A DNA stretch of 63,901 nt, the filler included. It is 5 parts of 5 records of this genome, joined end to end, with 100 filler letters (N's around TTAATTAATTAA, not from the genome) between each part and the next. Parts side by side here need not be neighbours in the genome. Positions count along the whole stretch, not along the records: positions 49,061 to 58,675 come from SRR22947727_3616; 4 more parts are not named here. One strand, 5' to 3'. Below the pieces are notes generated by a model. The model searched no databases and was not told where the DNA came from. It saw only the letters and a program-made list of their open reading frames with translations. Each line of letters opens with the position of its first letter. Position 1 is the first letter of the stretch. The position numbers were made by a program, and so were the translations under genes. Below, piece after piece: positions 1,063-58,775 of this stretch.

Positions 1063-2598
1063 ATGACAGATACCCAAAACCGCCGCGCTGGTGGCCGGGC
1101 TGCGCGTAAAGCGGCCAGAGCTGCGCCCCTCTCCGATGCGATGCGTCCCGTCCGCCCCGGCATGCAAGGCGGCACTTATAAACCACTCACGCAATTGGAT
1201 ATGGAGCGCATCAATGAGGCGGCACTCACCGCCCTTGAAGAGATTGGTCTGGCCGATGCGCCGCAGTCGGGCATTGATATTATGGTCGGCGCCGGCGCTA
1301 TTCTTGGGGAGGATGGCCGCTTGCGCTACCCCCGTGCCTTGATCGAAGATATGCTGGCCAAAGCCAATCGCGAGATCACGCTGAGCGCGCGCAATCCGAA
1401 ACATGATCTGCACCTTAGCGAAAAGAAGGTCCATTACGGCACCGCAGGGGCTGCGGTGCATATGGTCGACGTACAAACCCGCAGCTACCGCGAATCCACC
1501 GTCCGCGATTTGCACAATGCCGCGCGAATTGTGGAGCATTTGGACAATATCCATTTCGTGCAAAGACCCATGGTCTGCCGCGATATTCTCGACAATCGAG
1601 AGATGGACCTCAACACGATATACGCCTGCGCCACCGGCACGGAAAAACACATTGGCACCTCCTTTACAGAGCCTGATTTTGTCGATGATGCCTTTGAAAT
1701 GCTGCATATGATTGCTGGCGGTGAGGACAAATGGCGCGAGCGCCCCTTTGTGTCCAATTCCAATTGCTTCGTCGTGCCACCGATGAAATTCGCGACCGAA
1801 AGCTGCCAGGTTATGGAGAAATGTATTGCAGGCGGCATGCCTATTTTGCTGCTCAGTGCCGGGCAAGCAGGCGCCACCGCCCCGGCGCCAATCGCCGGCG
1901 CGATTGTGCAAGCGGTTGCCGAATGTTTGGCGGGGCTGGTCTATGTCAATGCGATCAAACCCGGTCATCCGGCCATATTTGGAACCTGGCCCTTTGTCTC
2001 GGATCTGCGCACGGGGGCTATGTCCGGCGGATCTGGCGAGCAGGCCCTGCTCACGGCCGGCTGTGCGCAAATGCACCATTACTATGGCCTGCCCGGCGGC
2101 GCGGCGGCCGGCATTGCCGATGCCAAACTGCCCGATATGCAAGCGGGATGGGAGCAGGCCATGTCAAATGTCATGGCCGGACTGACCGGATTGAATATGG
2201 TCTATGAAGCGGCAGGTATGCATGCCTCCCTTCTAGGATTTTGCCATGAATCCCTTATCTTAGGCGATGATTTGCTGGGACAGGCGATGCGCTGCGTGCG
2301 CGGCATTGAGGTCAGTGAAGACACGGTGGGTCTCGAGACCATGCGCGCGACCTGTTTGGGCGGGCCGGGTCATTATCTGGGCTCTGATCAAACCCTATCC
2401 TTGATGCAAACTGAGTATATCTACCCGGTTTTGGCAGATCGCAGTTCCCCCAAAGAATGGCAGGAGAAAGATCGGCCGGACCTCATCGAACAGGCGGTGG
2501 CGCGAAAAGAGGCTTTGATTGCGGCTCCAACACCGGCCGCACTGCCGCCGGAGGTGGACGCGCAGATTCGCCAGCGCTTCAAAATTCATCTGAATTAA
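1063..2598 (+). CDS. Trimethylamine methyltransferase (MttB) family protein, non-pyrrolysine type
   Basis: Roseobacter-style N-terminus RRAGGRAARKAAR, plus GATAPAPIAGA, DLRTGAMSGGSGE and ADAKLPDMQAGWE. No in-frame TAG. Confidence 0.9.
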   Translation: MTDTQNRRAGGRAARKAARAAPLSDAMRPVRPGMQGGTYKPLTQLDMERINEAALTALEEIGLADAPQSGIDIMVGAGAILGEDGRLRYPRALIEDMLAKANREITLSARNPKHDLHLSEKKVHYGTAGAAVHMVDVQTRSYRESTVRDLHNAARIVEHLDNIHFVQRPMVCRDILDNREMDLNTIYACATGTEKHIGTSFTEPDFVDDAFEMLHMIAGGEDKWRERPFVSNSNCFVVPPMKFATESCQVMEKCIAGGMPILLLSAGQAGATAPAPIAGAIVQAVAECLAGLVYVNAIKPGHPAIFGTWPFVSDLRTGAMSGGSGEQALLTAGCAQMHHYYGLPGGAAAGIADAKLPDMQAGWEQAMSNVMAGLTGLNMVYEAAGMHASLLGFCHESLILGDDLLGQAMRCVRGIEVSEDTVGLETMRATCLGGPGHYLGSDQTLSLMQTEYIYPVLADRSSPKEWQEKDRPDLIEQAVARKEALIAAPTPAALPPEVDAQIRQRFKIHLN

Positions 2599-10477: not shown

Positions 10478-10577
10478 NNNNNNNNNNNNNNNNNNNNNNN
10501 NNNNNNNNNNNNNNNNNNNNNTTAATTAATTAANNNNNNNNNNNNNNNNNNNNNNNNNNNNNNNNNNNNNNNNNNNN
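10478..10577. other. Artificial contig spacer
   Basis: 44 N + TTAATTAATTAA (stops in all frames) + 44 N. Confidence 0.99.
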
Positions 10578-14796: not shown

Positions 14797-17700
14797 TCAC
14801 TCTGCCGCGAGTCCCATTATAGTGCCATCCTTTAGGCTCAAGACGCACATTTCAGAGGCTATGGCGATGCTGTCCCAACCCGGTGCTGCGGGAAGGTTAA
14901 ATTCCTGCAGTCGGTCCCCGGACGCCTTGTCAATCATCCACAGAACGCCGCCTTTTTTCCCCTGGAACGCGTCATTCGTATCCTCCTGAGAAAAGCCCTC
15001 CGTCATAGGAACGCCGGCCACCACGACCGCATTTTCGCAGACCGAAATCGCATGTCCGGCAAAGGGAGTCGAGACCGACCAGTTCTTTTCCCAAGTTCCA
15101 ACCTCGGGAATTGTTTTGCCTTTTCGACTGATCCAGACGTCGCCTTTTTTGGCTGCCGTCAATTTGCCTGCGAAAACGGAATGCGTATTGAAGGGCGTCA
15201 GGTCGGCGCCACGCTTGGGAAGATTTCGACCGGGAGAGTAACCCCGAACTTCAAAAAACTCTCCATCAGCAAAGGCTGTCGTATCGCCCAACGGTCCATA
15301 GCCGGTGATGGCCGTAGGACCTCCATAACACAAGTCTATGTCGACGGTCCAGTAGGTTCGGTGCTGCGGAACCGAGTCCAAAAAGCCATGGGACGGGATC
15401 AAGTGTGGCTCAGTGATTTTGTCCATACTCACCGGTGTGAGATCCGGTTGAAAAGCCTGTTGCCTGAGAAACAGTTTGCCGTCAGATACCGAAAAGATGC
15501 CGGACTTGAATCCACCGAGGCGAAAGGTTCTCTCGCCCCGAGTGGGGAAATTTTCGTTATCCTCCTCGTAAGGCCCTGCCACGACTTTATTGTGAATCAT
15601 TTCACCGGTTTCCGGATTCAATCCGAACACCGAGACGCCACCGTCGAGGTAGCTGCTGCGTCCGGCGGCAAAGTAGGCGATGCCTTGCTCAACCAGCACA
15701 CTGCCGTTCACGGGCCAAGCCGATTCCAATTGTCCGCGGTCGACGATCAAGCTCTGAACCGGGAGGGCATTGAATCGCCAGCGAAGTGATCCGTCGCTTG
15801 CATCAAGGCAGTAAACCCAGCCATCGCGGCAGCCAGTCAGAAGCAGCCCTTTGTAGTAGGTTGGAGGCGAATCAATAGGACCACCGGCGGTGAATTTCCA
15901 CGCGGTTTCCCCCGTCTTTTTTTCGAGGCAATATAACGTGTGCCGATCTCTCGCGGCGACAAAGATGTGTTCACCAACCGCTACCGGCGCAGTTGGATTT
16001 GGCCCGACATTCACCTGCCACTTTGTCGCCAGCTTCGCAGGGAGGCTCGCCTTGCCGATGCCAGATCGTGCACCGGACTGTCGATACGTAGGCCAATCGA
16101 AATCCGCAGCCGCTTCACCAAGCGGACGAGTGAAAGCAGGCCCTTTCACGAGTCTGGGCGTGTGCGATATTTTAAAGCGACCGGACGTTTCGTTATAGAG
16201 TCCGTTGAACCCAGTCAGCATCGATCCGATGGCGCATTGGCAGACAAAGGGACCGTTGTAGATCATCCCGTTGGCGGGCATTGCTGAAAGTCCACAGGTC
16301 GAACGCACCCAGGGGTTCGGATATTCCGAATTTCCATCAAGCCCGACGAAATCAACGCCGCCAGACCCACTGTTGAGGTAATATTGGTAGGTGACCCGAT
16401 TTCGGTAGCAGCGATCGTGCGACATCGGCCCGAGCATTTCCTGATTCAGCCCCTTCACAACTTCCCCGGTTTTGGGATTGATCCCTTTGAGTTGCTTGCT
16501 CCAGAGCAAACCTTGAGCAATGAAAAGCTCAGGACTTTTCATGTAATTTTCTCCGTTCGGACAAGTCCACAGCTTCTCCCCATTCGTGAGCGCATAAGCA
16601 GCAATCTCGTTGCCGTAGGCACAAAAGGCTTTGTTTGGGGCCAGGACCAGAGTTGGGTGAATATTGTAATCTTCGCCCGGCTCACCTTTGGGACTTGGTG
16701 CGGCTTTCGATTTTTTCTCGTTCGTTTTCCCCTTCTTCTTTTTGGCTTTTTTGGGTTCACCTCCGGAAAGTTCAACCGCAGATTCCCACGCAATCGCCCC
16801 CGTCTCCTTATCCAGACAGACCAATTCATTTTTCGCAAGATAGGCAACGACAGCTTTGTTCGCACAAACACTGGCACCGATGTAGCCGCTCTTGAGAGGA
16901 ACGGTCCACTGCATTTTGTTGGCATTCAAATCGTAGGCATACAGCGAGATTTCTTTTTCGACCGCAGGTTCAGTTCCAGTGCGGCGTTTTTCCCGTGCAG
17001 CTTCTTCAGTGACCAGGCCATATCCGGGGCCTTGAATTCCATACAAAATGCCGCCTTCTACTGCGACTTCGCGAGTCGACTCGGTACCCGCCAAAAGTTC
17101 GATCTCCTCTCCGCTTCTGCCATCAAATTTGGAAATCGGTTCATCGAATCCCATGGTGAAATAGACATGATCTTCAATCGCCACGAGGCGGCGTTGCAGT
17201 TGCGATGAGACACTCTTGATACTTGTGGTGCCACTTCCAATTGCCCATTCCTTGACCGGACGTTTCCAAAGTTCGATTCCGTTGAAGGCATCACGCGCGA
17301 CCAGGTGATAATCAAAAGGAGCATGGACATCCTCCGGCGTTGCGCGGTCCTCGACGGTAAAAAGCACTCCGTTGGCGGTAACCATACAAGTGACCGAAGG
17401 CATCAGGGCTTTTGCCCGACCGGTCTCAGGCGTATTGTGCCAGCGCATCCGTTGAGGTGGGCCAACGTCATCGCGAGACACACCGTTGTTGGCCGCATTG
17501 TGGAGATACTGGTTCCACTCATCCATGCCCTTGGGCACAGGTTTCACAATCCGATCATACCCGTCTTTAGTTTTCGCATACAGCACGCCTTGCGGAGCCA
17601 GGACACGCATGATTTCATCTCTGGGAACTTTTGTGCTCTCATTGCAAATCACGAGATTTACCAAATTATCGATGTAAGGCAGATCCGAGCCGTTGTGAAG

Positions 17701-27026: not shown

Positions 27027-27126
27027 NNNNNNNNNNNNNNNNNNNNNNNNNNNNNNNNNNNNNNNNNNNNTTAATTAATTAANNNNNNNNNNNNNNNNNN
27101 NNNNNNNNNNNNNNNNNNNNNNNNNN
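27027..27126. other. Artificial contig spacer
   Basis: Same N44-TTAATTAATTAA-N44 linker. Confidence 0.99.
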
Positions 27127-45487: not shown

Positions 45488-48100
45488 GTGTTCATGCCGG
45501 CAGCTCCTTTTATCGTATCGATCATGTTATCGATGTTGGTCCTATGTCATAACACTGCCGCTGCCCCCATTGTGCAACCTGGCGCACCCGGCGAGACCTC
45601 CCGCTTACTCAGTGCTGACCTTGCCATTCAGATTGCCGATACCAGCCATACGCCGGACGATATTCAGTTTATGCAAGACATGATGGTGCACCATCAGCAG
45701 GCGCTGGATATGGCCCTGCTCGCCAAAGACCGCACCAATTCTCCCGGCCTTTTAGCCGCATCAGGCAGGATCGAGGCGTCACAAGCGGATGAAATTGCCT
45801 TTATGACGCAATGGCTCACCACGCGAGATGAACCGCTGATCAATCCAATCCATGTCGGCGATGAACACCATCACGTCATGATGGGCATGGCGACACCCGC
45901 GCAAATGCAAAGCCTTGCCGACGCAACCGGTAGCGACTTTGATCGACACTTTCTGACCTTGATGATCACCCATCACGAAGGTGCCCTCGAGATGGTTGAG
46001 ACGCTCATGGAACAGCCCGGTGCGGCCTACGATCCAACATTATTCGAATTCACAACGGATATTGTTAACGATCAAGAAAAAGAGATTGAGCGCATGCACG
46101 GCCTATTGGTCGACCTCTCAGAAGATCCGCGTGCGCACCTTACCGCCGGACTTTATGACGCTGAGGAAGCCATTTGGCACCTGGAAAAAGTGGCCGTATT
46201 GACCAAGCCCGCCGGATTTTATGACCCCGCCAACCCTGCCGAACTGCCACCGGCGCGATTCATGGTGACCGCGCCGATAACCGATGCTTCCCAAAAGGGT
46301 ACAGCTGTTGCCGACCATAGCGCGCACAACAGCACCGAGCACAACGAGATATCCAAGGCGACTGCGCAAGGTAAGTCTGAGCACGCAAGCGAGCAGCCTA
46401 AAGAGCATGGCAAAGACAGTACTGAGGCCATTGCGGAGGCACTCACTCCAAGCAGCACTGACGCCACCGAATCGGCCGAAGACCAAGACAAACCCGAAGC
46501 GCGCGCCCCGTTGCTGAGTTTTTCGAATACCGACATCGCGTTCTGGGACAATATTATGGTGGCCGGGAGTTACCATGGCTTCAATATCTATGAGCTGACT
46601 GAGGAGAATGCGCCTTCACTGCTGGCGTCAGTCGTTTGCCCCGGAGGACAAGGCGATGTCTCGATCGTCGGGCACCTCCTCATACTGTCGGTGGAAGAAA
46701 CACGTAGCCGTGTTGATTGTGGGTTAGAGGGCATCCGCGGCGACGTGAGCGCTGATCGTTTCCGCGGCATCCGTATTTTTGATATCAGTGATGTGACGCA
46801 GCCGCGGCAAGTGGGTGCCGTGCAAACGTGTCGCGGATCGCACACACACTCCGTCGTCGCAGGACCCGACGATCAAGGCAAGCTCATCGTCTACAACTCG
46901 GGGATTTCTCGCGTTCGCGAAGAGGAAGAAATGACGGGCTGTATCGATGAATCTCCGGGCGATAACCGTACCGCGCTATTTCGGATCGACGTCATCGAAA
47001 TTCCTGTCGAGGACCCTTCTCGCGCCCGCATTATTGATAGCCCCACCGTGTTTGCGGATCCTGAAACCGGTGCGTTGTCGGGTCTCTGGCGAGGAGGCGA
47101 CCATGGTGACGAGACGCAAGAGACCTATCGCACCGATCAGTGCCATGACATTACGGTCTTCCCCACTCTCAAACTCGCTGCCGGCGCGTGCTCCGGCAAT
47201 GGGATCTTGTTCGATATCAGTGATCCACGACATCCCGAACGTATCGATGTGGCGACCGATACCGGCTTTGCCTACTGGCACTCGGCCACGTTCAACAACG
47301 ACGGCACTAAAGTCATTTTCACGGATGAGTGGGGAGGCGGTACCCGTCCCCGCTGTCGCAGCTATGACCCGCTCACTTGGGGCGCCGATGCGATCTACGA
47401 TATCGTCGATGGCAAACTGGTCTTTCAAAGTCATTATAAAATGAAAGCCCCCCAGCTCGAGACCGAAAATTGTGTGGCCCATAACGGCTCCATCATCCCC
47501 GTGCCCGGTCGCGATATTTTTGTACAGGCGTGGTACCAAGGCGGCCTGTCGATAATCGATTTCACCGACTCACTGAATCCGGTTGAAATCGCTTACTTTG
47601 ATCGTGGGCCTGTCGATGCCGAAGATCTGGTTACGGGCGGTTATTGGTCAACGTATTGGTACAACGGCCACATTTACGGCACCGAAATTATCCGCGGGAT
47701 CGATGTTTTTGCGCTCACGCCGAGTGACTACCTCAGCGCCAATGAAATCGCAGCTGCCACATTAGCCGACCAGGGCAGGCAATTTAATCCGCAGCAGCAG
47801 TTTCCCAATACTTGGCCAGCCGCACCCATTGTGGGCATGGCTTACCTAGACCAATTGCTGAGAGCGCATCCCGAGAAGGGAGCAGAGATGGATCTACTCT
47901 ACGACCTACTCCGTGAGGCCGACGTGCGTCTCGCCGCACAAGAGACCGATACTGCACTCTCGGCGGAACTGCAACAGTGGGCACAGTCGCCAGCAGTGAT
48001 AACATCGACTGCGCTACAGGAGGTGCTTGAGGCGATCAGCGCACGTTTAATGGCAATTGATACCAACAACCTCGTTAGCACGACCGCACGACATCACTAA
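45488..48100 (+). CDS. Secreted DUF305 + LVIVD-type beta-propeller protein
   Basis: PIVQPGAPG, FMQDMMVHHQQA and MITHHEGA (DUF305); CPGGQGDVS, TCRGSHTH, CHDITV, HSATF and ENCVAHNG. Confidence 0.85.
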   Translation: MFMPAAPFIVSIMLSMLVLCHNTAAAPIVQPGAPGETSRLLSADLAIQIADTSHTPDDIQFMQDMMVHHQQALDMALLAKDRTNSPGLLAASGRIEASQADEIAFMTQWLTTRDEPLINPIHVGDEHHHVMMGMATPAQMQSLADATGSDFDRHFLTLMITHHEGALEMVETLMEQPGAAYDPTLFEFTTDIVNDQEKEIERMHGLLVDLSEDPRAHLTAGLYDAEEAIWHLEKVAVLTKPAGFYDPANPAELPPARFMVTAPITDASQKGTAVADHSAHNSTEHNEISKATAQGKSEHASEQPKEHGKDSTEAIAEALTPSSTDATESAEDQDKPEARAPLLSFSNTDIAFWDNIMVAGSYHGFNIYELTEENAPSLLASVVCPGGQGDVSIVGHLLILSVEETRSRVDCGLEGIRGDVSADRFRGIRIFDISDVTQPRQVGAVQTCRGSHTHSVVAGPDDQGKLIVYNSGISRVREEEEMTGCIDESPGDNRTALFRIDVIEIPVEDPSRARIIDSPTVFADPETGALSGLWRGGDHGDETQETYRTDQCHDITVFPTLKLAAGACSGNGILFDISDPRHPERIDVATDTGFAYWHSATFNNDGTKVIFTDEWGGGTRPRCRSYDPLTWGADAIYDIVDGKLVFQSHYKMKAPQLETENCVAHNGSIIPVPGRDIFVQAWYQGGLSIIDFTDSLNPVEIAYFDRGPVDAEDLVTGGYWSTYWYNGHIYGTEIIRGIDVFALTPSDYLSANEIAAATLADQGRQFNPQQQFPNTWPAAPIVGMAYLDQLLRAHPEKGAEMDLLYDLLREADVRLAAQETDTALSAELQQWAQSPAVITSTALQEVLEAISARLMAIDTNNLVSTTARHH

Positions 48101-48960: not shown

Positions 48961-49060
48961 NNNNNNNNNNNNNNNNNNNNNNNNNNNNNNNNNNNNNNNN
49001 NNNNTTAATTAATTAANNNNNNNNNNNNNNNNNNNNNNNNNNNNNNNNNNNNNNNNNNNN
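48961..49060. other. Artificial contig spacer
   Basis: Same linker. Confidence 0.99.
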
Positions 49061-53414: not shown

Positions 53415-53488
53415 GCGAAGATTTCAACATTAAAATATCGGTTCAGGAGCGAACAACCAGCAAAGGTTTGGACCTTCTCAATGATTAA
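53411..53488 (+). CDS. 25-aa mini-ORF, possible gene remnant
   Basis: MSEDFNIKISVQERTTSKGLDLLND; overlaps the upstream stop (ATGA) and the downstream start. Confidence 0.35.
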   Translation: MSEDFNIKISVQERTTSKGLDLLND

Positions 53489-53849
53489 TCGAAGGGAGGC
53501 TTACGAAAGATTAGAAAATCTTTTAAAAAAGGCAATGGACCCTGCTTGCTCCCCCGCAGAAGCTCAAGCGTGTAAGGCAATGGCGGATAAACTAGCCGCG
53601 GAACTAGGTATTAAACGACGTAAAAAGAAACGTAAAGAAAAGTTGTTTGTAAAAGGACTGTACACAAAAGCCCCGCAAGAAAGCTCTCCTGAATGGGTGA
53701 TGTTCACTTTAAATATTAACCGCGTAGAACTAATTAATTGGCTTTTAACAAGCGGTCGCTCAGAGTGGATTAACGCTCAAGTGTGCAAAAGTCGCGGCAC
53801 GGGGAACTTTTACGCAGAAGTGAATCAATGGGAAGACGTAAATACATGA
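53481..53849 (+). CDS. Phage hypothetical protein (DUF2786-like N-terminal helical hairpin plus a second domain)
   Basis: LLKKAMDPACSPAEAQAC..MADKL, a basic linker, then FVKGL..P.WV...INWL...WINAQV...FYAEVNQW. Confidence 0.6.
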   Translation: MINRREAYERLENLLKKAMDPACSPAEAQACKAMADKLAAELGIKRRKKKRKEKLFVKGLYTKAPQESSPEWVMFTLNINRVELINWLLTSGRSEWINAQVCKSRGTGNFYAEVNQWEDVNT

Positions 53850-54136
53850 AAAAAGAAGAAATATTAAAAAAAAGTGCAGAGTTAGTGACAGGCAACCGTG
53901 CAAAAGACTACGGTGACGCGCTCGAAAACTTTGACCGTATCGCCACAGGGTGGAACGTAATTCTAAACGGGGCAATAGCCTCGCATGGATACCTAACCGC
54001 GCAGCACGTTGCGCTTATGATGGATTGGGTTAAAACAGCAAGACTACTAAACACCCTAGACCATGAAGACTCATGGATCGACAAGTGCGGATACAGCGCA
54101 ATCGGTGGGTCTTTTTCGGGAGAAAAAAGTGAGTAA
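53846..54136 (+). CDS. DUF6378-like phage protein
   Basis: L..SAELVTGNRAKDYGDA.ENF.RIA..W and VALMM..VK.AR....HEDSWIDKCGYSAIGG. Confidence 0.8.
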   Translation: MKKEEILKKSAELVTGNRAKDYGDALENFDRIATGWNVILNGAIASHGYLTAQHVALMMDWVKTARLLNTLDHEDSWIDKCGYSAIGGSFSGEKSE

Positions 54137-56024
54137 TCTAACAGTAGGCAACGCGTCCCTTTTATCCGAATGGGTGCCTCCACACGAACTGCCAGACCTA
54201 ACACGCGCCAAAACAATTTCCATCGACGTGGAAACCAAAGACCCCAATCTTAAAAAGATGGGCCCCGGATGGGCTAGAGGTGACGGCGAAGTGGTGGGAT
54301 ACGCCGTGGCAACTACAGATTGGGCCGGATACATCCCCATCAGGCACCGAGGCGGCGGCAACCTAGACGAAAAGCAAGTTAACAAGTGGCTCAAAAAGAT
54401 ATTCGACTGCCCCGCAGATAAAGTCATGCACAACGCTCAGTATGACCTCGGCTGGATCAAGCGCATGGGCTTTGATGTAAAGGGCCGTGTGATCGACACG
54501 ATGGTTGTGGCGTCCCTGCTTGATGAAAACCGTAGAAGCTTCAGTCTCAACAACCTCTGCTACGAACTGTTAGGCATAGCCAAGTCAGAAAAACTATTAA
54601 ACGCCGCCGCGGTGGAGTTCGGGTTCGATGCCAAAGCAGAAATGTGGAAGATGCCCGCAATGTTTGTCGGGCCTTACGCACAGAACGATGCAGAGATTAC
54701 GCTTAAACTGTGGGACTACCTGTCTGTACAAATCAAACAGGAAAACCTTGAGGGCGTTACAGAACTCGAACTGGACCTCCTGCCCTGCCTTGTAGACATG
54801 ACGTGGCGCGGTATTCGCGTTGATATGGACAAAGCCGAAATAACGCGGAACGCAATCCTAAAGCGTGAGAAAGAAGTCCACAAAGAAATAAAACGTATCT
54901 CCGGTTGCGACATAGAAATCTGGGCCGCGGCGTCCATTGCCAAAGCCTTCGATAAAATGGGCATAGAATACTTTAAAACAGAAAAGGGCTCTCCGTCCTT
55001 TACCAAGAAGTTTCTGTCAGAACATCCCGATAAGTTACCTAAACTGATCGTAGAAGCGCGGAACCTCAACAAAACGTCCGGCACGTTCATAAACAACATC
55101 CTGACCTTCTGTAACTCAGATGGACGTATCCATAGCCATATAAACCAAATTAGATCAGATGACGGCGGTACAGTGTCTGGGCGGTTCTCCATGAATAACC
55201 CAAACCTACAACAAATCCCCGCCCGTGACCCTGAGATAGGACCAATGATCCGGTCCCTGTTCCTGCCAGAAGAAGGCGAACAATGGGCCGCTATAGATTA
55301 CTCCCAACAAGAACCGCGCATATTAGTTCACTACGCACACGTATTTGGTAAAAGCCAGAACAGAGTGCTAGGGGGCGTCACAGAGTTTATACAAAGCTAT
55401 AAGGACGATCCGCGGACCGACTTCCATACGATGGTGGCAGAAATGGCGGGCATCCCGCGTAAACAAGCGAAGACCGTGAACCTCGGTATTATGTATGGCA
55501 TGGGCGTGGGTAAGCTGGCGATTGAACTTGATCTGCCCGAGGAACAGGCCAGAAGCCTAATTAACCAGTACCATGAGCGGGTGCCGTTTGTGAAAGAACT
55601 GATGAAGGGCGTACAAAGTCACCTTAGTCAGAAAGGAAGCCGAGGCCATGTGAGGTCCCTACTAGGCCGGAAGTGTCGGTTTGAGTTGTGGGAACCAAAG
55701 CAGTTTGGAATGTTTAAAGCACTGCCGTTCGAGCAAGCGGTGTTAGAACACGGCAAGCACACTCCGCTGGTCAGAGCGTACACCTACAAAGCCTTAAACA
55801 GGCTGATCCAAGCGTCCGCCGCGGACATGACCAAGAAAGCTATGGTCGATCTGTACCGAGAAGGCTATCTGCCCATGCTGCAAATACACGACGAACTGGC
55901 TATGTCAGTAACGTCCAGAGAAGAGGCAGAAAAGGTTGCACTAATCATGCAAAATGCTGTACCATTGGAGTTGCCAAGCCTTTGTGACGTTGAGTTGGGT
56001 CCGTCATGGGGCGAAGCGGTATAG
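54129..56024 (+). CDS. Phage family A DNA polymerase with 3'-5' exonuclease
   Basis: IDVET, HNAQYD and YAQNDA (exonuclease); SGRFS..NPNLQQIP, DYSQQEPR (motif A), RKQAKTVNLGIMYG (motif B) and QIHDEL (motif C). GTG start at 54129. Confidence 0.96.
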   Translation: MSNLTVGNASLLSEWVPPHELPDLTRAKTISIDVETKDPNLKKMGPGWARGDGEVVGYAVATTDWAGYIPIRHRGGGNLDEKQVNKWLKKIFDCPADKVMHNAQYDLGWIKRMGFDVKGRVIDTMVVASLLDENRRSFSLNNLCYELLGIAKSEKLLNAAAVEFGFDAKAEMWKMPAMFVGPYAQNDAEITLKLWDYLSVQIKQENLEGVTELELDLLPCLVDMTWRGIRVDMDKAEITRNAILKREKEVHKEIKRISGCDIEIWAAASIAKAFDKMGIEYFKTEKGSPSFTKKFLSEHPDKLPKLIVEARNLNKTSGTFINNILTFCNSDGRIHSHINQIRSDDGGTVSGRFSMNNPNLQQIPARDPEIGPMIRSLFLPEEGEQWAAIDYSQQEPRILVHYAHVFGKSQNRVLGGVTEFIQSYKDDPRTDFHTMVAEMAGIPRKQAKTVNLGIMYGMGVGKLAIELDLPEEQARSLINQYHERVPFVKELMKGVQSHLSQKGSRGHVRSLLGRKCRFELWEPKQFGMFKALPFEQAVLEHGKHTPLVRAYTYKALNRLIQASAADMTKKAMVDLYREGYLPMLQIHDELAMSVTSREEAEKVALIMQNAVPLELPSLCDVELGPSWGEAV

Positions 56025-56038
56025 TCTGCTCTTCAACT

Positions 56039-56072
56039 CCCCCGCTTTGGTTCAGCAAGGCGGGGGTTTTTT
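56039..56072 (+). terminator. Intrinsic terminator after the polymerase gene
   Basis: CCCCCGCTTTG-N6-CAAGGCGGGGG followed by TTTTTT. Confidence 0.88.
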
Positions 56073-56073
56073 G

Positions 56074-56102
56074 TTGTGTATCAAGTGTTTATCCTATATA
56101 GT
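56074..56102 (+). promoter_or_regulatory. Sigma70-like promoter P1 (RHH gene)
   Basis: TTGTGT-N17-TATAGT. Confidence 0.6.
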
Positions 56103-56130
56103 CCCAGAAACTCGCACAAAGGCGCATAAG

Positions 56131-56307
56131 ATGGATACTACAAAATGGAAATCAGTCCTCGTTCCGGTCGAAGTTTACCGCGAACTGAAGATTTTATCGG
56201 CTATCGAAGGCCGCACAATCAGCGGACAGCTACGCTTCATGTTTGACCAATACAGCAAACTGAAGTCCGTCCGAAATAAGCTCAAGCAACACTACGAAGA
56301 GGCTTGA
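56131..56307 (+). CDS. Small ribbon-helix-helix (Arc/CopG-like) regulator
   Basis: MDTTKWKSVLVPVEVYRELKILSAIEGRTISGQLRFMF: a beta strand with alternating hydrophobics, then helix-G-R-T-helix. Confidence 0.7.
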   Translation: MDTTKWKSVLVPVEVYRELKILSAIEGRTISGQLRFMFDQYSKLKSVRNKLKQHYEEA

Positions 56308-56332
56308 CCACTCCCATATTATCGCGTATGTA
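56304..56332 (+). promoter_or_regulatory. Sigma70-like promoter P2 (candidate sRNA)
   Basis: TTGACC-N17-TATGTA, overlapping the RHH stop codon. Confidence 0.65.
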
Positions 56333-56337
56333 ATAAG

Positions 56338-56418
56338 TATCTCCTCATGAGATATTAATATGTTTGTTCTCCAATAAACATGGAACCCTCACCGAAATAC
56401 CCGCGGTGAGGGTTTTTT
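56338..56418 (+). ncRNA. Candidate phage antisense small RNA (~80 nt, three hairpins)
   Basis: Promoter upstream; stems TATCTC/GAGATA and ATGTTTGTT-CTCC-AATAAACAT; terminator AACCCTCACCG/CGGTGAGGGTT plus T-run; 56360-56372 is the reverse complement of 56554-56566. Confidence 0.65.
56384..56418 (+). terminator. Intrinsic terminator of the candidate sRNA
   Basis: 11-bp perfect stem, 9-nt loop, T6 at 56413-56418. Confidence 0.88.
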
Positions 56419-56431
56419 CTTGTCCAATTAA

Positions 56432-56454
56432 TCACGCTAACGACGTTAGCGTGA
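56432..56454. repeat. Perfect 23-bp inverted repeat
   Basis: TCACGCTAACG-A-CGTTAGCGTGA. Confidence 0.9.
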
Positions 56455-56507
56455 CGGATTTAAAAAACCTAAGACTAAGGGTCTATTCAAGCATTTATTA
56501 TTTGTAC

Positions 56508-56536
56508 TTGACTATCTCGTATAGTTGGTTTATCTT
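56508..56536 (+). promoter_or_regulatory. Sigma70-like promoter P3 (ParB-like/early operon)
   Basis: TTGACT-N17-TATCTT preceded by an AT-rich tract. Confidence 0.75.
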
Positions 56537-56564
56537 AGCTTTACTCAACCAAAGGAGAACAAAC

Positions 56565-57404
56565 ATGCTTGAGTCGCGCTTTCTTGATAAAGCAGCCGCA
56601 ACAGAACTGCTTAGTAATAACTGGCATAAAAACCGTAAAATCCACAGAGGTATTAAAGATCAACACGTTAAAGACCTTGCGTTTAAAATTACACAAGGCC
56701 GCTGGGTTGTAGACGCAATGGAAACGCCTATTCTAATTGATACAGACGGTATTTTATATAACGGTCAAAATAGATGTATGGCTGTAATTCTCGCTGACCA
56801 AGGTGTAGTGGTGCAGTGCCGCATAGAGTCGCCGGAAGAGTGCCGAAGACTGTACGCGTCTCTGGACCTCGGCAAAGCCCGATCAATCGCAGACATTACA
56901 GGATTAAACCAAAGCAACATAGTGCAGCCCATACTCTACCTCATGCGCTGCGCGGGCCTTGATGGACGGCTTAAAGATGAAGCCGTCGTATCGCGGATCG
57001 CGGATACTTACATGGGAGATATCTTGCGCCACTTCGATCAAAACACCCGTTGGGTAAAAAACAATCGGTGCTTTAATTCTGTTCAATTTAAGGCCGCAAT
57101 GGCGTACTGTGTTCATAGACGGGTATTGCCCGATTACGAAGCTATCTCGGTGCTTGAAATGTTGCAGAACAACAAAGACTACCACTGGCCTTCTATGTAT
57201 TTAAATTACCGCGAACAGATCATGTTTCCAAACGGTAAGCTAAATACTAGCGGTAAAGTCGTAGCAAACGATAAGTTCTGCCGAGGCGTTTATCTGATCG
57301 AACGCCGCATGAAACATCAAAGCAAAATTCAAATATCCAGCGGCTTTCTGGAGGACCTTGCTTCAAACCTTCGCCGCGTGATCCGCGAGGCTGCTGCCGA
57401 ATGA
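56565..57404 (+). CDS. ParB/Srx (DGQHR-like) domain phage protein
   Basis: A.ELL..N..NRKI....V..LA..I..GRW.....PILIDTDG.LYNGQNRCMAV and SLDLGKARS..D; RBS AAGGAG before ATG 56565. Confidence 0.7.
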   Translation: MLESRFLDKAAATELLSNNWHKNRKIHRGIKDQHVKDLAFKITQGRWVVDAMETPILIDTDGILYNGQNRCMAVILADQGVVVQCRIESPEECRRLYASLDLGKARSIADITGLNQSNIVQPILYLMRCAGLDGRLKDEAVVSRIADTYMGDILRHFDQNTRWVKNNRCFNSVQFKAAMAYCVHRRVLPDYEAISVLEMLQNNKDYHWPSMYLNYREQIMFPNGKLNTSGKVVANDKFCRGVYLIERRMKHQSKIQISSGFLEDLASNLRRVIREAAAE

Positions 57405-57619
57405 ATTATAAGATAGAAAAAAACATCCCCCTTCCCGCGTCACAGCGGAAAGGGAAGTTCGCTATCCTAGAGGATTTGGAAGTTGGCGACAGTTTCCACG
57501 TTGCAGATGTAACCGCGCCAGCGGGTATCTATTCAAAAGCAGAAAGCCTCGGGATCAAAGTAACCGTAAGAAGCATCCTACACCATAGCGGCGGCTTCAG
57601 AGTTTGGAGAATCGAATGA
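57401..57619 (+). CDS. Small phage protein (KIEKNIPLP...LEVGDSF...RVWR family), putative DNA-binding
   Basis: Recurrent phage motif pattern; ATGA coupling. Confidence 0.7.
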   Translation: MNYKIEKNIPLPASQRKGKFAILEDLEVGDSFHVADVTAPAGIYSKAESLGIKVTVRSILHHSGGFRVWRIE

Positions 57620-57915
57620 GCGACAAAGCTTGGCACATAAGCTACCTGTCCGCTATCGTCGGACCGTGCGCCGCAACCACAGATGACGGTTGTATGGCGT
57701 GGGAAGACACAGAAAAAAGTGACTTTGTTATGCGCCTACTTGACAGGGATAACGACGCCAAAAACCTCCTACTCGTTATTCAACCAGAAATGAATGAGTT
57801 GGCGATTTACACCCTGACCGGATACTGCGTGGCAAACGATCTGCCGTACATGATTAAAGATTGGGATACCCTGTCCGCAGAAGGGCAAAAAGAAGCCCAG
57901 AAAACGAGGCACTGA
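57616..57915 (+). CDS. Phage hypothetical protein
   Basis: GGAG RBS, ATGA overlap. Confidence 0.65.
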   Translation: MSDKAWHISYLSAIVGPCAATTDDGCMAWEDTEKSDFVMRLLDRDNDAKNLLLVIQPEMNELAIYTLTGYCVANDLPYMIKDWDTLSAEGQKEAQKTRH

Positions 57916-58675: not shown

Positions 58676-58775
58676 NNNNNNNNNNNNNNNNNNNNNNNNN
58701 NNNNNNNNNNNNNNNNNNNTTAATTAATTAANNNNNNNNNNNNNNNNNNNNNNNNNNNNNNNNNNNNNNNNNNNN
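58676..58775. other. Artificial contig spacer
   Basis: Same linker. Confidence 0.99.

Follow-up and report, generated by a model that had tools for sequence, protein, structure and literature searches.

Does a short unit between two phage genes encode an RNA that pairs with the ribosome sites of the phage's own messages, and if so, with how many of them? The question is raised by positions 56304-56418 of a window of 63,901 nucleotides (nt), by which we mean the whole stretch of DNA that was analyzed. The unit lies on a phage contig (49061-58675), one of several contigs in the concatenated window, whose plus strand carries, in order, a gene for a family-A DNA polymerase (polA), a ribbon-helix-helix (RHH) gene, the unit, and a gene of unknown function that encodes 279 amino acids (aa). 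A sequence-only reading had proposed a separate small RNA that pairs with the Shine-Dalgarno (SD) sequence and start codon of the downstream neighbor. Our analysis makes it fairly probable that the unit encodes a small RNA of ~80 nt that acts in trans and has an anti-SD and a type-specific regulon. Pairing with ribosome sites is supported by co-variation over five seed types, but the neighbor would not be the sole target; instead, the target appears to be a set of genes with an extended SD.

A hairpin loop complementary to a ribosome site

As had been noticed, positions 56360-56372 are the exact complement of 56554-56566 (target site 1, plus strand), which runs from the SD GGAG through the AU of the start codon of the 279-aa gene. 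Together the two form a perfect 13-nt inverted repeat. Allowing at most one mismatch, the 13-mer occurs twice in the window against 0.05 expected, and none of 100 shuffles contained two matches. The upstream partner belongs to hairpin 2 (56359-56382, plus strand), an anti-SD module with a 10-bp A/U-rich stem, and folding agreed with the claim that this middle hairpin exposes CUCC in its loop. The seed comprises the 5′ arm, the loop, and the first bases of the 3′ arm (about 56360-56376). Alone, the hairpin folds at -6.1 kcal/mol, with a G.U in its stem where the target provides a G-C.

The suggested interaction between the RNA and the leader of the neighboring gene, which starts at promoter P3, was also borne out by prediction. 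Cofolding gave 14+4 intermolecular pairs and a gain of -12.1 kcal/mol, a value reached by none of 300 shuffled leaders. This gain fits pairing that begins at the loop and then displaces the 3′ arm, in which case SD, spacer, and start codon would all be covered.

Seeds and ribosome sites change together

Relatives were drawn from IMG/VR. A search with the 279-aa protein gave 18 close loci (87-98% identity), and the window was aligned with 17 of them. A polA search gave 595 more distant matches, of which the best 80 were used, and 97 loci in all were then compared. Finally, a pattern scan for the promoter block of the unit found 101 stretches and added two further seed types. At the depth of the 17 close loci, RNA and target showed no co-variation.

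Across the wider collection, five types of seed were found, each with its own cognate site. Type A, that of the window, has the seed AUGUUUGUUCUCCAAU and the site (U)UGGAGAACA(A/G)ACAU, while type B pairs the seed AGACAUUCUCCAA with the site UUGGAGAAUGU. In type F (L201), the seed is GUUAGUUCUCCG and the site GGAGAACUAA(C). Type E, in which the anti-SD itself is CCUC, has the seed GACACCUCAUAAAA and the site (UU)UAUGAGG(U), and type C has the seed (U)CUCCGUAGU and the site ACUACGGAG(G). Each seed was reverse-complemented, and the resulting motif was looked for at the ribosome sites of downstream genes, in loci of the same type and in all others. Loci from separate searches overlapped and were therefore de-duplicated by gene and site strings. 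The type A motif was present at 33 of 117 sites in its own loci vs. 2 of 342 elsewhere, and that of type B at 21 of 205 vs. none of 254. The same held for type E (14/79 vs. 5/380), type C (6/46 vs. 0/413), and type F (3/12 vs. 2/447).

Because these motifs were chosen post hoc, we repeated the comparison using the longest Watson-Crick match to 20-nt seeds. With matches of at least 9 nt, 86 sites best fit their cognate RNA and 28 a non-cognate one. When sites were collapsed to protein families, there were 36 cognate vs. 12 non-cognate type-by-family units (12.8 expected from the margins). Around one-third of downstream gene families have a cognate site. The change can be followed within single genes: the site of a 375-aa gene is GGAGAACGTA in type A, GGAGAATGTA in type B, and GGAGAACTAAG in type F, and sites of orthologs in families 2, 4, 6, and 13 likewise change with RNA type. 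Type A and B orthologs upstream of polA have no special site, hence no co-variation test can be drawn from them.

This pattern bears on whether a real small RNA might have host mRNAs or factors as its main targets (e.g., host sites of the GGAGAAC type), the match to phage sites being secondary. A review describes many phage small RNAs as acting on host transcripts (PMC12197685). An exposed anti-SD could also pair with many host SDs. However, type-specific co-variation with the phage's own sites indicates that these sites were selected jointly with the seed, and we consider a primarily host-directed RNA quite unlikely.

Candidate targets beyond the neighboring gene

The broader set of candidate targets is clearest in a complete relative of 57,960 bp with direct terminal repeats (G003). 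There, GGAGAAC is the commonest extended SD, found 18 times and in 9 cases at a ribosome site. All but one of these nine sites fall either in the 7.7 kb that follow the RNA gene or in the opening 1.3 kb of the record. In complete relatives generally, some nine genes have this SD, and almost all of them are downstream. Across type-A loci, GGAGAACA is borne by at least 11 distinct genes, and GGAGAACAGACAUG, which forms 13-14 bp with the RNA including one G.U, by four or five unrelated small genes. Whole-RNA duplex prediction was discarded, as spurious pairing to the G+C-rich terminator strands dominated it. Among the best predicted type-A targets, 20 of 22 are downstream genes, and type-A downstream genes favor the type-A RNA over baseline (Mann-Whitney p = 3.9e-5). 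Position 9 of the target alternates between A and G (GGAGAACA[A/G]ACAU). The RNA has a U facing this position, so both forms pair.

The phage contig of the window stops before most target genes and has just two sites, one of 13 nt and one of 9 bp. The second candidate (site 2, 57604-57612, plus strand) is UUGGAGAAU, which lies before a 99-aa gene at 57616-57915 and forms eight Watson-Crick pairs and one G.U with the apex of hairpin 2. The 99-aa gene has the same site in 18 type-A loci. Pfam and PHROG searches gave no recognizable family or function for the target genes.

Anatomy of the unit

The earlier proposal of an ~80-nt unit made of three hairpins was partly upheld. Positions 56325-56420 do fold into three hairpins (minimum free energy -33.6 kcal/mol, z = -5.7), and none of 200 shuffles was equally stable, but only hairpin 2 and the terminator are conserved. 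Hairpin 1 (56335-56356, plus strand), the 5′ part of the unit, is variable. At the other end, the predicted strong terminator does fold and its stem pairing is conserved. This intrinsic terminator (56384-56418, plus strand) consists of a stem-loop at 56384-56414 with an 11-12 bp G+C-rich stem and a 9-nt loop, followed by T6; a terminator scan missed it only because of the loop length.

Upstream, the promoter-like block P2 (56304-56332, plus strand) overlaps the RHH stop codon. It stands where it had been described, with TTGACC at 56304-56309, a 17-nt spacer, and TATGTA at 56327-56332, and it is conserved. However, a consensus sigma-70 promoter scan did not call it, because the -10 hexamer ends in A rather than T; its support comes from conservation among relatives. 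The promoter proposed for the 279-aa gene, P3 (56508-56536, plus strand; TTGACT-N17-TATCTT), was called by the scan (9/12) and is kept in all 17 close relatives despite indels 5′ of it. Between the terminator and P3 is a perfect 11+11 palindrome, TCACGCTAACG-A-CGTTAGCGTGA, at 56432-56454. It sits in an indel-rich spacer with no T-run after it. Most close relatives retain it, some with a change in one arm. Its deletion in L007 and L008 indicates that it is dispensable for the module.

The unit had not been recognized as a named RNA family, and our searches agree. A scan of the whole window at Rfam 15 gathering thresholds (4,227 families) gave a single match, to PYLIS_3 on a different contig, and none to the unit. 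In a sensitive scan of 55900-56800, the unit matched rnk_leader (20 bits vs. 50, E 1.2) and other families at E > 1. These sub-threshold matches are at chance level and driven by the terminator. Two further ideas were rejected: a mini-ORF in hairpin 2 (open reading frame, MFVLQ*) as a coding explanation, which is not kept in the other types, and hairpin 1 as a second anti-SD module, as its loop varies among close relatives.

Conservation in close and distant relatives

Selection on the unit is suggested by the contrast between its core and its surroundings. The P2 block TTGACC...TATGTAATA and hairpin 2 are unchanged in all 16 close relatives that have the region, whereas third-codon positions of the RHH gene vary. 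Hairpin 1 varies with compensatory changes, the terminator shows G-C to G.U changes, and the spacer before P3 carries indels of 45-80 nt. Invariance of P2 and hairpin 2 beside these drifting flanks argues that the unit is under selection. Target site 1 is identical in 13 of the 17 close relatives.

In the larger set of 97 loci, tblastn places the RHH gene after polA in 90, whereas the 279-aa gene is found in only 21. The order 3′ of the RHH gene recurs, with a promoter block, an anti-SD element, and a G+C-rich terminator, after which the accessory genes differ. The terminator is followed, in types A and B, by a second promoter and a GGAGAA-type SD. Hairpin 1 was seen only in the window's close relatives, being absent from L026-L041, type B, and the other types, which leaves the anti-SD hairpin, terminator, and promoter block as the conserved elements of the clade. 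A MAFFT alignment of the type A and B RNAs matched the type B 3′ arm to the type A 5′ arm; this misalignment was not used for pair counts, and variants were folded singly instead. Hairpin 2 is identical in sequence in 12 of 12 distinct type-A variants, and each of the 21 distinct variants of types A and B leaves CUCC unpaired and has a terminator after it. The terminator stem diverges widely in sequence while its pairing is maintained. In types C, E, and F, the seed is likewise looped or single-stranded.

The promoter block is also well defined. All 22 distinct type A and B upstream stretches have the form TTGAC-N3-TCCCATA-N3-TCGC-N-TA... with a 17-nt spacer (TTGAC-N17-TAnnn(A/T)), a position that would put the 5′ end of the RNA at the 5′ arm of the hairpin. 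In type B, the block lies within the last RHH codons, and its retention inside coding sequence argues for selection on the DNA signal itself.

Conservation also helps to assess the idea that no regulatory pairing takes place, the unit being an RHH terminator plus a promoter cassette and the complementarity an inverted remnant of recombining promoter and ribosome-site cassettes. Promoter/stem-loop cassettes of the T4 type are a comparable case. Accessory genes do differ between relatives while a promoter and ribosome-site cassette is common to them, and the minus strand of hairpin 2 resembles such a ribosome site. The junction TAA(A/C)CCCAATGGAGAACAGACATG recurs in type-A loci ahead of small genes that are unrelated to one another (e.g., G002 14963-15153, minus strand) and is apparently a mobile cassette of stop codon and ribosome site. 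Still, a remnant would be expected to decay, yet the hairpin is invariant within a type as its flanks drift, the anti-SD stays unpaired in every type, the unit has its own conserved promoter block, and changes in the hairpin are matched by changes at the ribosome sites of orthologs. An origin as a recombination relic without function is, in our view, unlikely.

Boxes in the module promoters

The 17-nt spacer of P2 contains a box, TCCCATA-N3-TCGC (56313-56326). The box, with relaxed TATC-N3-TATA forms, occurs in the spacers of all three module promoters, the others being P3 (56513-56524) and the promoter 5′ of the RHH gene (56090-56102). Among relatives, it occurs in both orientations (L025, L042-L088). 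In type C, it takes the form of a palindrome, GTATGCGAT...ATCGCATAC, across the -35 element. The box looks like an operator of the RHH protein, an arrangement that would bring the RNA and the neighboring target under one switch.

A module rich in protein-binding-like boxes could also mean that the 9-13-nt words shared by hairpin and genes are themselves DNA sites for a phage protein, with orientation irrelevant and the hairpin a palindromic operator rather than an RNA element. The presence of TCCCATA-N3-TCGC in both orientations (L025 and loci without the RNA) is in keeping with this, as are the RHH gene and a sigma-70 region 4 protein encoded nearby. However, the words always contain the SD and lie at translation starts on the coding strand. 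The A/G alternation, neutral when paired with U, would be a mismatch in a DNA site, and in types C and E the seed lies outside any palindrome. We therefore regard DNA operators as a very improbable explanation of the shared words.

The conserved TTGAC elements might be read by a 214-aa protein with sigma-70 region 4, encoded in G003 at 46522-47166 (L109:6522-7163; Pfam E 2.9e-18). A gene that looks similar lies directly after the RNA gene in L024 and starts 6-7 nt past the promoter -10 (leaderless).

Transcript evidence and contrary points

Metatranscriptome contigs from four runs in two studies cover 56250-56457, that is, the RHH gene and the unit, although such contigs carry no information on ends, strand, or level. 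One RNA contig begins at 56559, and 56497-56537 is covered by none, with contig gaps being uninformative.

Several points weigh against a trans-acting RNA with a regulon. The cognate motifs were written after the seeds had been seen, gene calls followed simple ORF-plus-SD rules and include some spurious ORFs, and 12 of the 48 family units were non-cognate. The five seed types amount to at most five independent events, and ribosome-site motifs also spread as cassettes through recombination, as TAA(A/C)CCCAATGGAGAACAGACATG illustrates. For type B, a crude duplex-energy test of downstream vs. upstream genes found no shift (p = 0.70). The expected agreement between hairpin arm and ribosome site in homologs, which holds across the five types, fails in 4 of the 17 close relatives (L014-L017), where the target has lost one base (GGAGAACAAA-ATG) and the RNA is unchanged, an uncompensated deletion. 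L024 keeps the type-A hairpin beside a neighbor without an SD; it has two GGAGAACAA sites further downstream, and a plurality of targets would account for the hairpin being kept. Some RNA-library contigs extend past the terminator to 56446-56495. The P2 -10 ends in A in most types, an atypical last base for sigma-70, and the unit might alternatively form the 3′ end of the RHH mRNA. Finally, it is from where the sites lie that the effect is assumed to be repression.

The contigs that pass the terminator would also suit an anti-SD that acts in cis. Here, the 13-nt stretch of read-through or RHH-initiated transcripts would fold back on the SD 181 nt downstream. Only mRNA that starts at P3 would then allow translation of the neighbor, and a free small RNA with a regulon would not exist. 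The same long-range helix is predicted in a 257-nt read-through RNA, and type C has no promoter between the terminator and the next SD. Against this stand the strong and conserved terminator, the large indels in the spacer between the partners, and L024, which keeps the hairpin though its adjacent gene lacks an SD. Action in cis would also leave unexplained the cognate sites kilobases away before many genes. We judge a purely cis-acting element unlikely as well. The helix in read-through RNA means that cis pairing may contribute at the neighboring gene, while the distant cognate sites need action in trans.

Two observations on type C touch on this arrangement. In type C loci such as L061, L069, L075, and L085, the RHH gene and the RNA promoter are separated by a small CxxC...CxxC zinc-ribbon-like frame. 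The type C terminator directly precedes the SD of a gene resembling the one at 53481-53849 of the window, and this form may act as a leader or attenuator.

Proposed mechanism and its implications

We infer a discrete RNA species that acts in trans as a translational repressor. It would be transcribed from its own regulated promoter and stopped at the strong intrinsic terminator. Its functional part would be hairpin 2, with a weak A/U-rich stem that shows the CUCC anti-SD in the loop. The loop would nucleate pairing with the SD of phage mRNAs that bear the extended site (U)UGGAGAAC. At the best targets, pairing would extend into the 5′ arm and displace the weaker 3′ arm, giving a duplex over SD, spacer, and start codon that is predicted to span 13 bp at the 279-aa gene and 13-14 bp with one G.U at the small genes of complete relatives. 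A site covered in this way should block 30S binding and so reduce translation of accessory, probably early, genes clustered downstream. Each phage type would have its own seed and its own matching ribosome-site motif.

A bolder version, which we advance only tentatively and think doubtful, is that each type uses a private SD extension to mark its accessory or early genes, and that the matching anti-SD RNA shuts this class off on schedule, amounting to RNA-based, type-specific exclusion. If so, a phage in a mixed infection would silence the early genes of a same-type competitor and spare those of another type. This would be comparable to the heteroimmunity of P1 and P7, yet in lytic phages and on many genes. 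Confirmation of the RNA would provide a simple mechanism by which environmental phages, as yet beyond culture, could time their genes or exclude one another, as well as ready-made orthogonal pairs of RNA and ribosome site, and dozens of orphan phage genes could be grouped as one co-regulated class. A full-text search of a limited literature collection returned no description of this RNA family, nor of any small RNA from a phage whose regulon comprises the co-varying ribosome sites of many genes.

Genomic setting

The RHH gene (56131-56307, plus strand, 58 aa) is directly 5′ of the unit and is the conserved landmark of the module; its match to Pfam RHH_5 (E 3.2e-5) is slightly below the curated cutoff. 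The polA gene (54063-56024, plus strand) is followed by its own terminator, and at 56022-56074 this terminator has a sub-threshold Rfam match to NsiR1 (24.8 bits vs. 39), with the likeness restricted to the terminator stem and T-run. The 279-aa gene (56565-57404, plus strand) belongs to phrog_5931. The sequence-only reading had called it ParB-like, a label that sequence searches did not confirm: its product matched no Pfam family at E<=0.1, including ParB_N (PF02195), and its best match among PDB sequences was unrelated (E 0.19). ParB_N was found only on 14% of one nearby atlas cluster, a weak lead.

N runs around TTAATTAATTAA at 10478-10577, 27027-27126, 48961-49060, and 58676-58775 are six-frame stop linkers. 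The window thus consists of draft assembly or bin contigs joined by linkers, and the phage contig has no shown physical link to its bacterial-looking neighbors. On one of the other contigs, the PYLIS_3 match (pyrrolysine insertion sequence of mttB; 2114-2212, plus strand) scores 51.7 bits vs. a gathering score of 38.

The phage clade is large, abundant, uncultured, and marine, and it is probably virulent. Compared by DNA, GenBank phages gave only weak polA matches; by protein, the best polA match was 56% identical and the RHH protein had none. This left no cultured relative or published transcriptome to draw on. A pattern search of genome contigs with the 279-aa protein gave 35 matches, none of which was confirmed. 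Neither of two near-complete relatives contains a tyrosine integrase (PF00589) or a serine recombinase (PF00239), which suggests that the phage is probably virulent and that the analogy with P1 and P22 immunity is one of mechanism, not biology.

Comparison with known systems

Base-pairing RNAs that block ribosome sites are textbook regulators and are used by phages P1 and P22. In the known phage cases, one operon of a temperate phage is controlled. The system proposed here would be broader, a conserved RNA family with at least five seed types, whose diversification is accompanied by that of the ribosome-site motifs at many small genes of the phage itself. The parallel with phage immunity drawn in the sequence-only reading is apt for the mechanism but otherwise loose. 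Relative to c4- and sar-type systems, which belong to temperate immunity regions and target an antirepressor, we found no integrase in 2/2 relatives and targets without a recognizable family.

The closest known system is c4 of P1 and P7. A review describes the c4 RNA of the immI operon as a 77-nt trans-acting RNA whose loops pair around a ribosome-binding site and block translation (PMC12197685). It also relates heteroimmunity to complementary sequences that differ between P1 and P7 (PMC12197685; mentioned in PMC8546580). The unit resembles c4 in its predicted trans action, loop-displayed antisense to a ribosome site, and type-specific co-variation. Like the unit, the c4 gene precedes its target and is read from the same strand. 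Judging from their title, Citron and Schuster 1992 report that c4 arises by processing of a longer transcript. By contrast, the unit has its own promoter-like block and terminator and more candidate targets, and it has no sequence or structure match to c4 in Rfam. Furthermore, c4 serves the lysogenic immunity of a temperate plasmid-prophage through one operon.

For P22, the same review describes a sar RNA of 68-69 nt that pairs with ant mRNA and hinders translation initiation (PMC12197685). The likeness to the present locus lies in an RHH regulator beside a small RNA that would block the ribosome site of the next gene. Indeed, P22 immI also encodes the RHH repressors Arc and Mnt. However, sar is a cis-antisense RNA made from the opposite strand across its single target, whereas the RNA here would come from the same strand, at a distance of ~190 bp, and would match several genes through short, seed-type complementary stretches.

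Outside phages, RNAIII and RsaE of Staphylococcus are host small RNAs with C-rich loops (UCCC/CUCC) that bind SDs. They share with the proposed RNA a hairpin-loop anti-SD, loop-initiated pairing, several mRNA targets, and repression of initiation. They differ in being chromosomal rather than phage-encoded and are unrelated to the unit in sequence, and we know of no co-evolving private SD extension described for RNAs of this kind. In T4, the protein repressor RegA and the nuclease RegB act on the ribosome sites of many early mRNAs, much as proposed here for the shutdown of a phage gene class through a shared ribosome-site feature. RegA and RegB are proteins; here the agent would be an RNA that recognizes its sites by base pairing.

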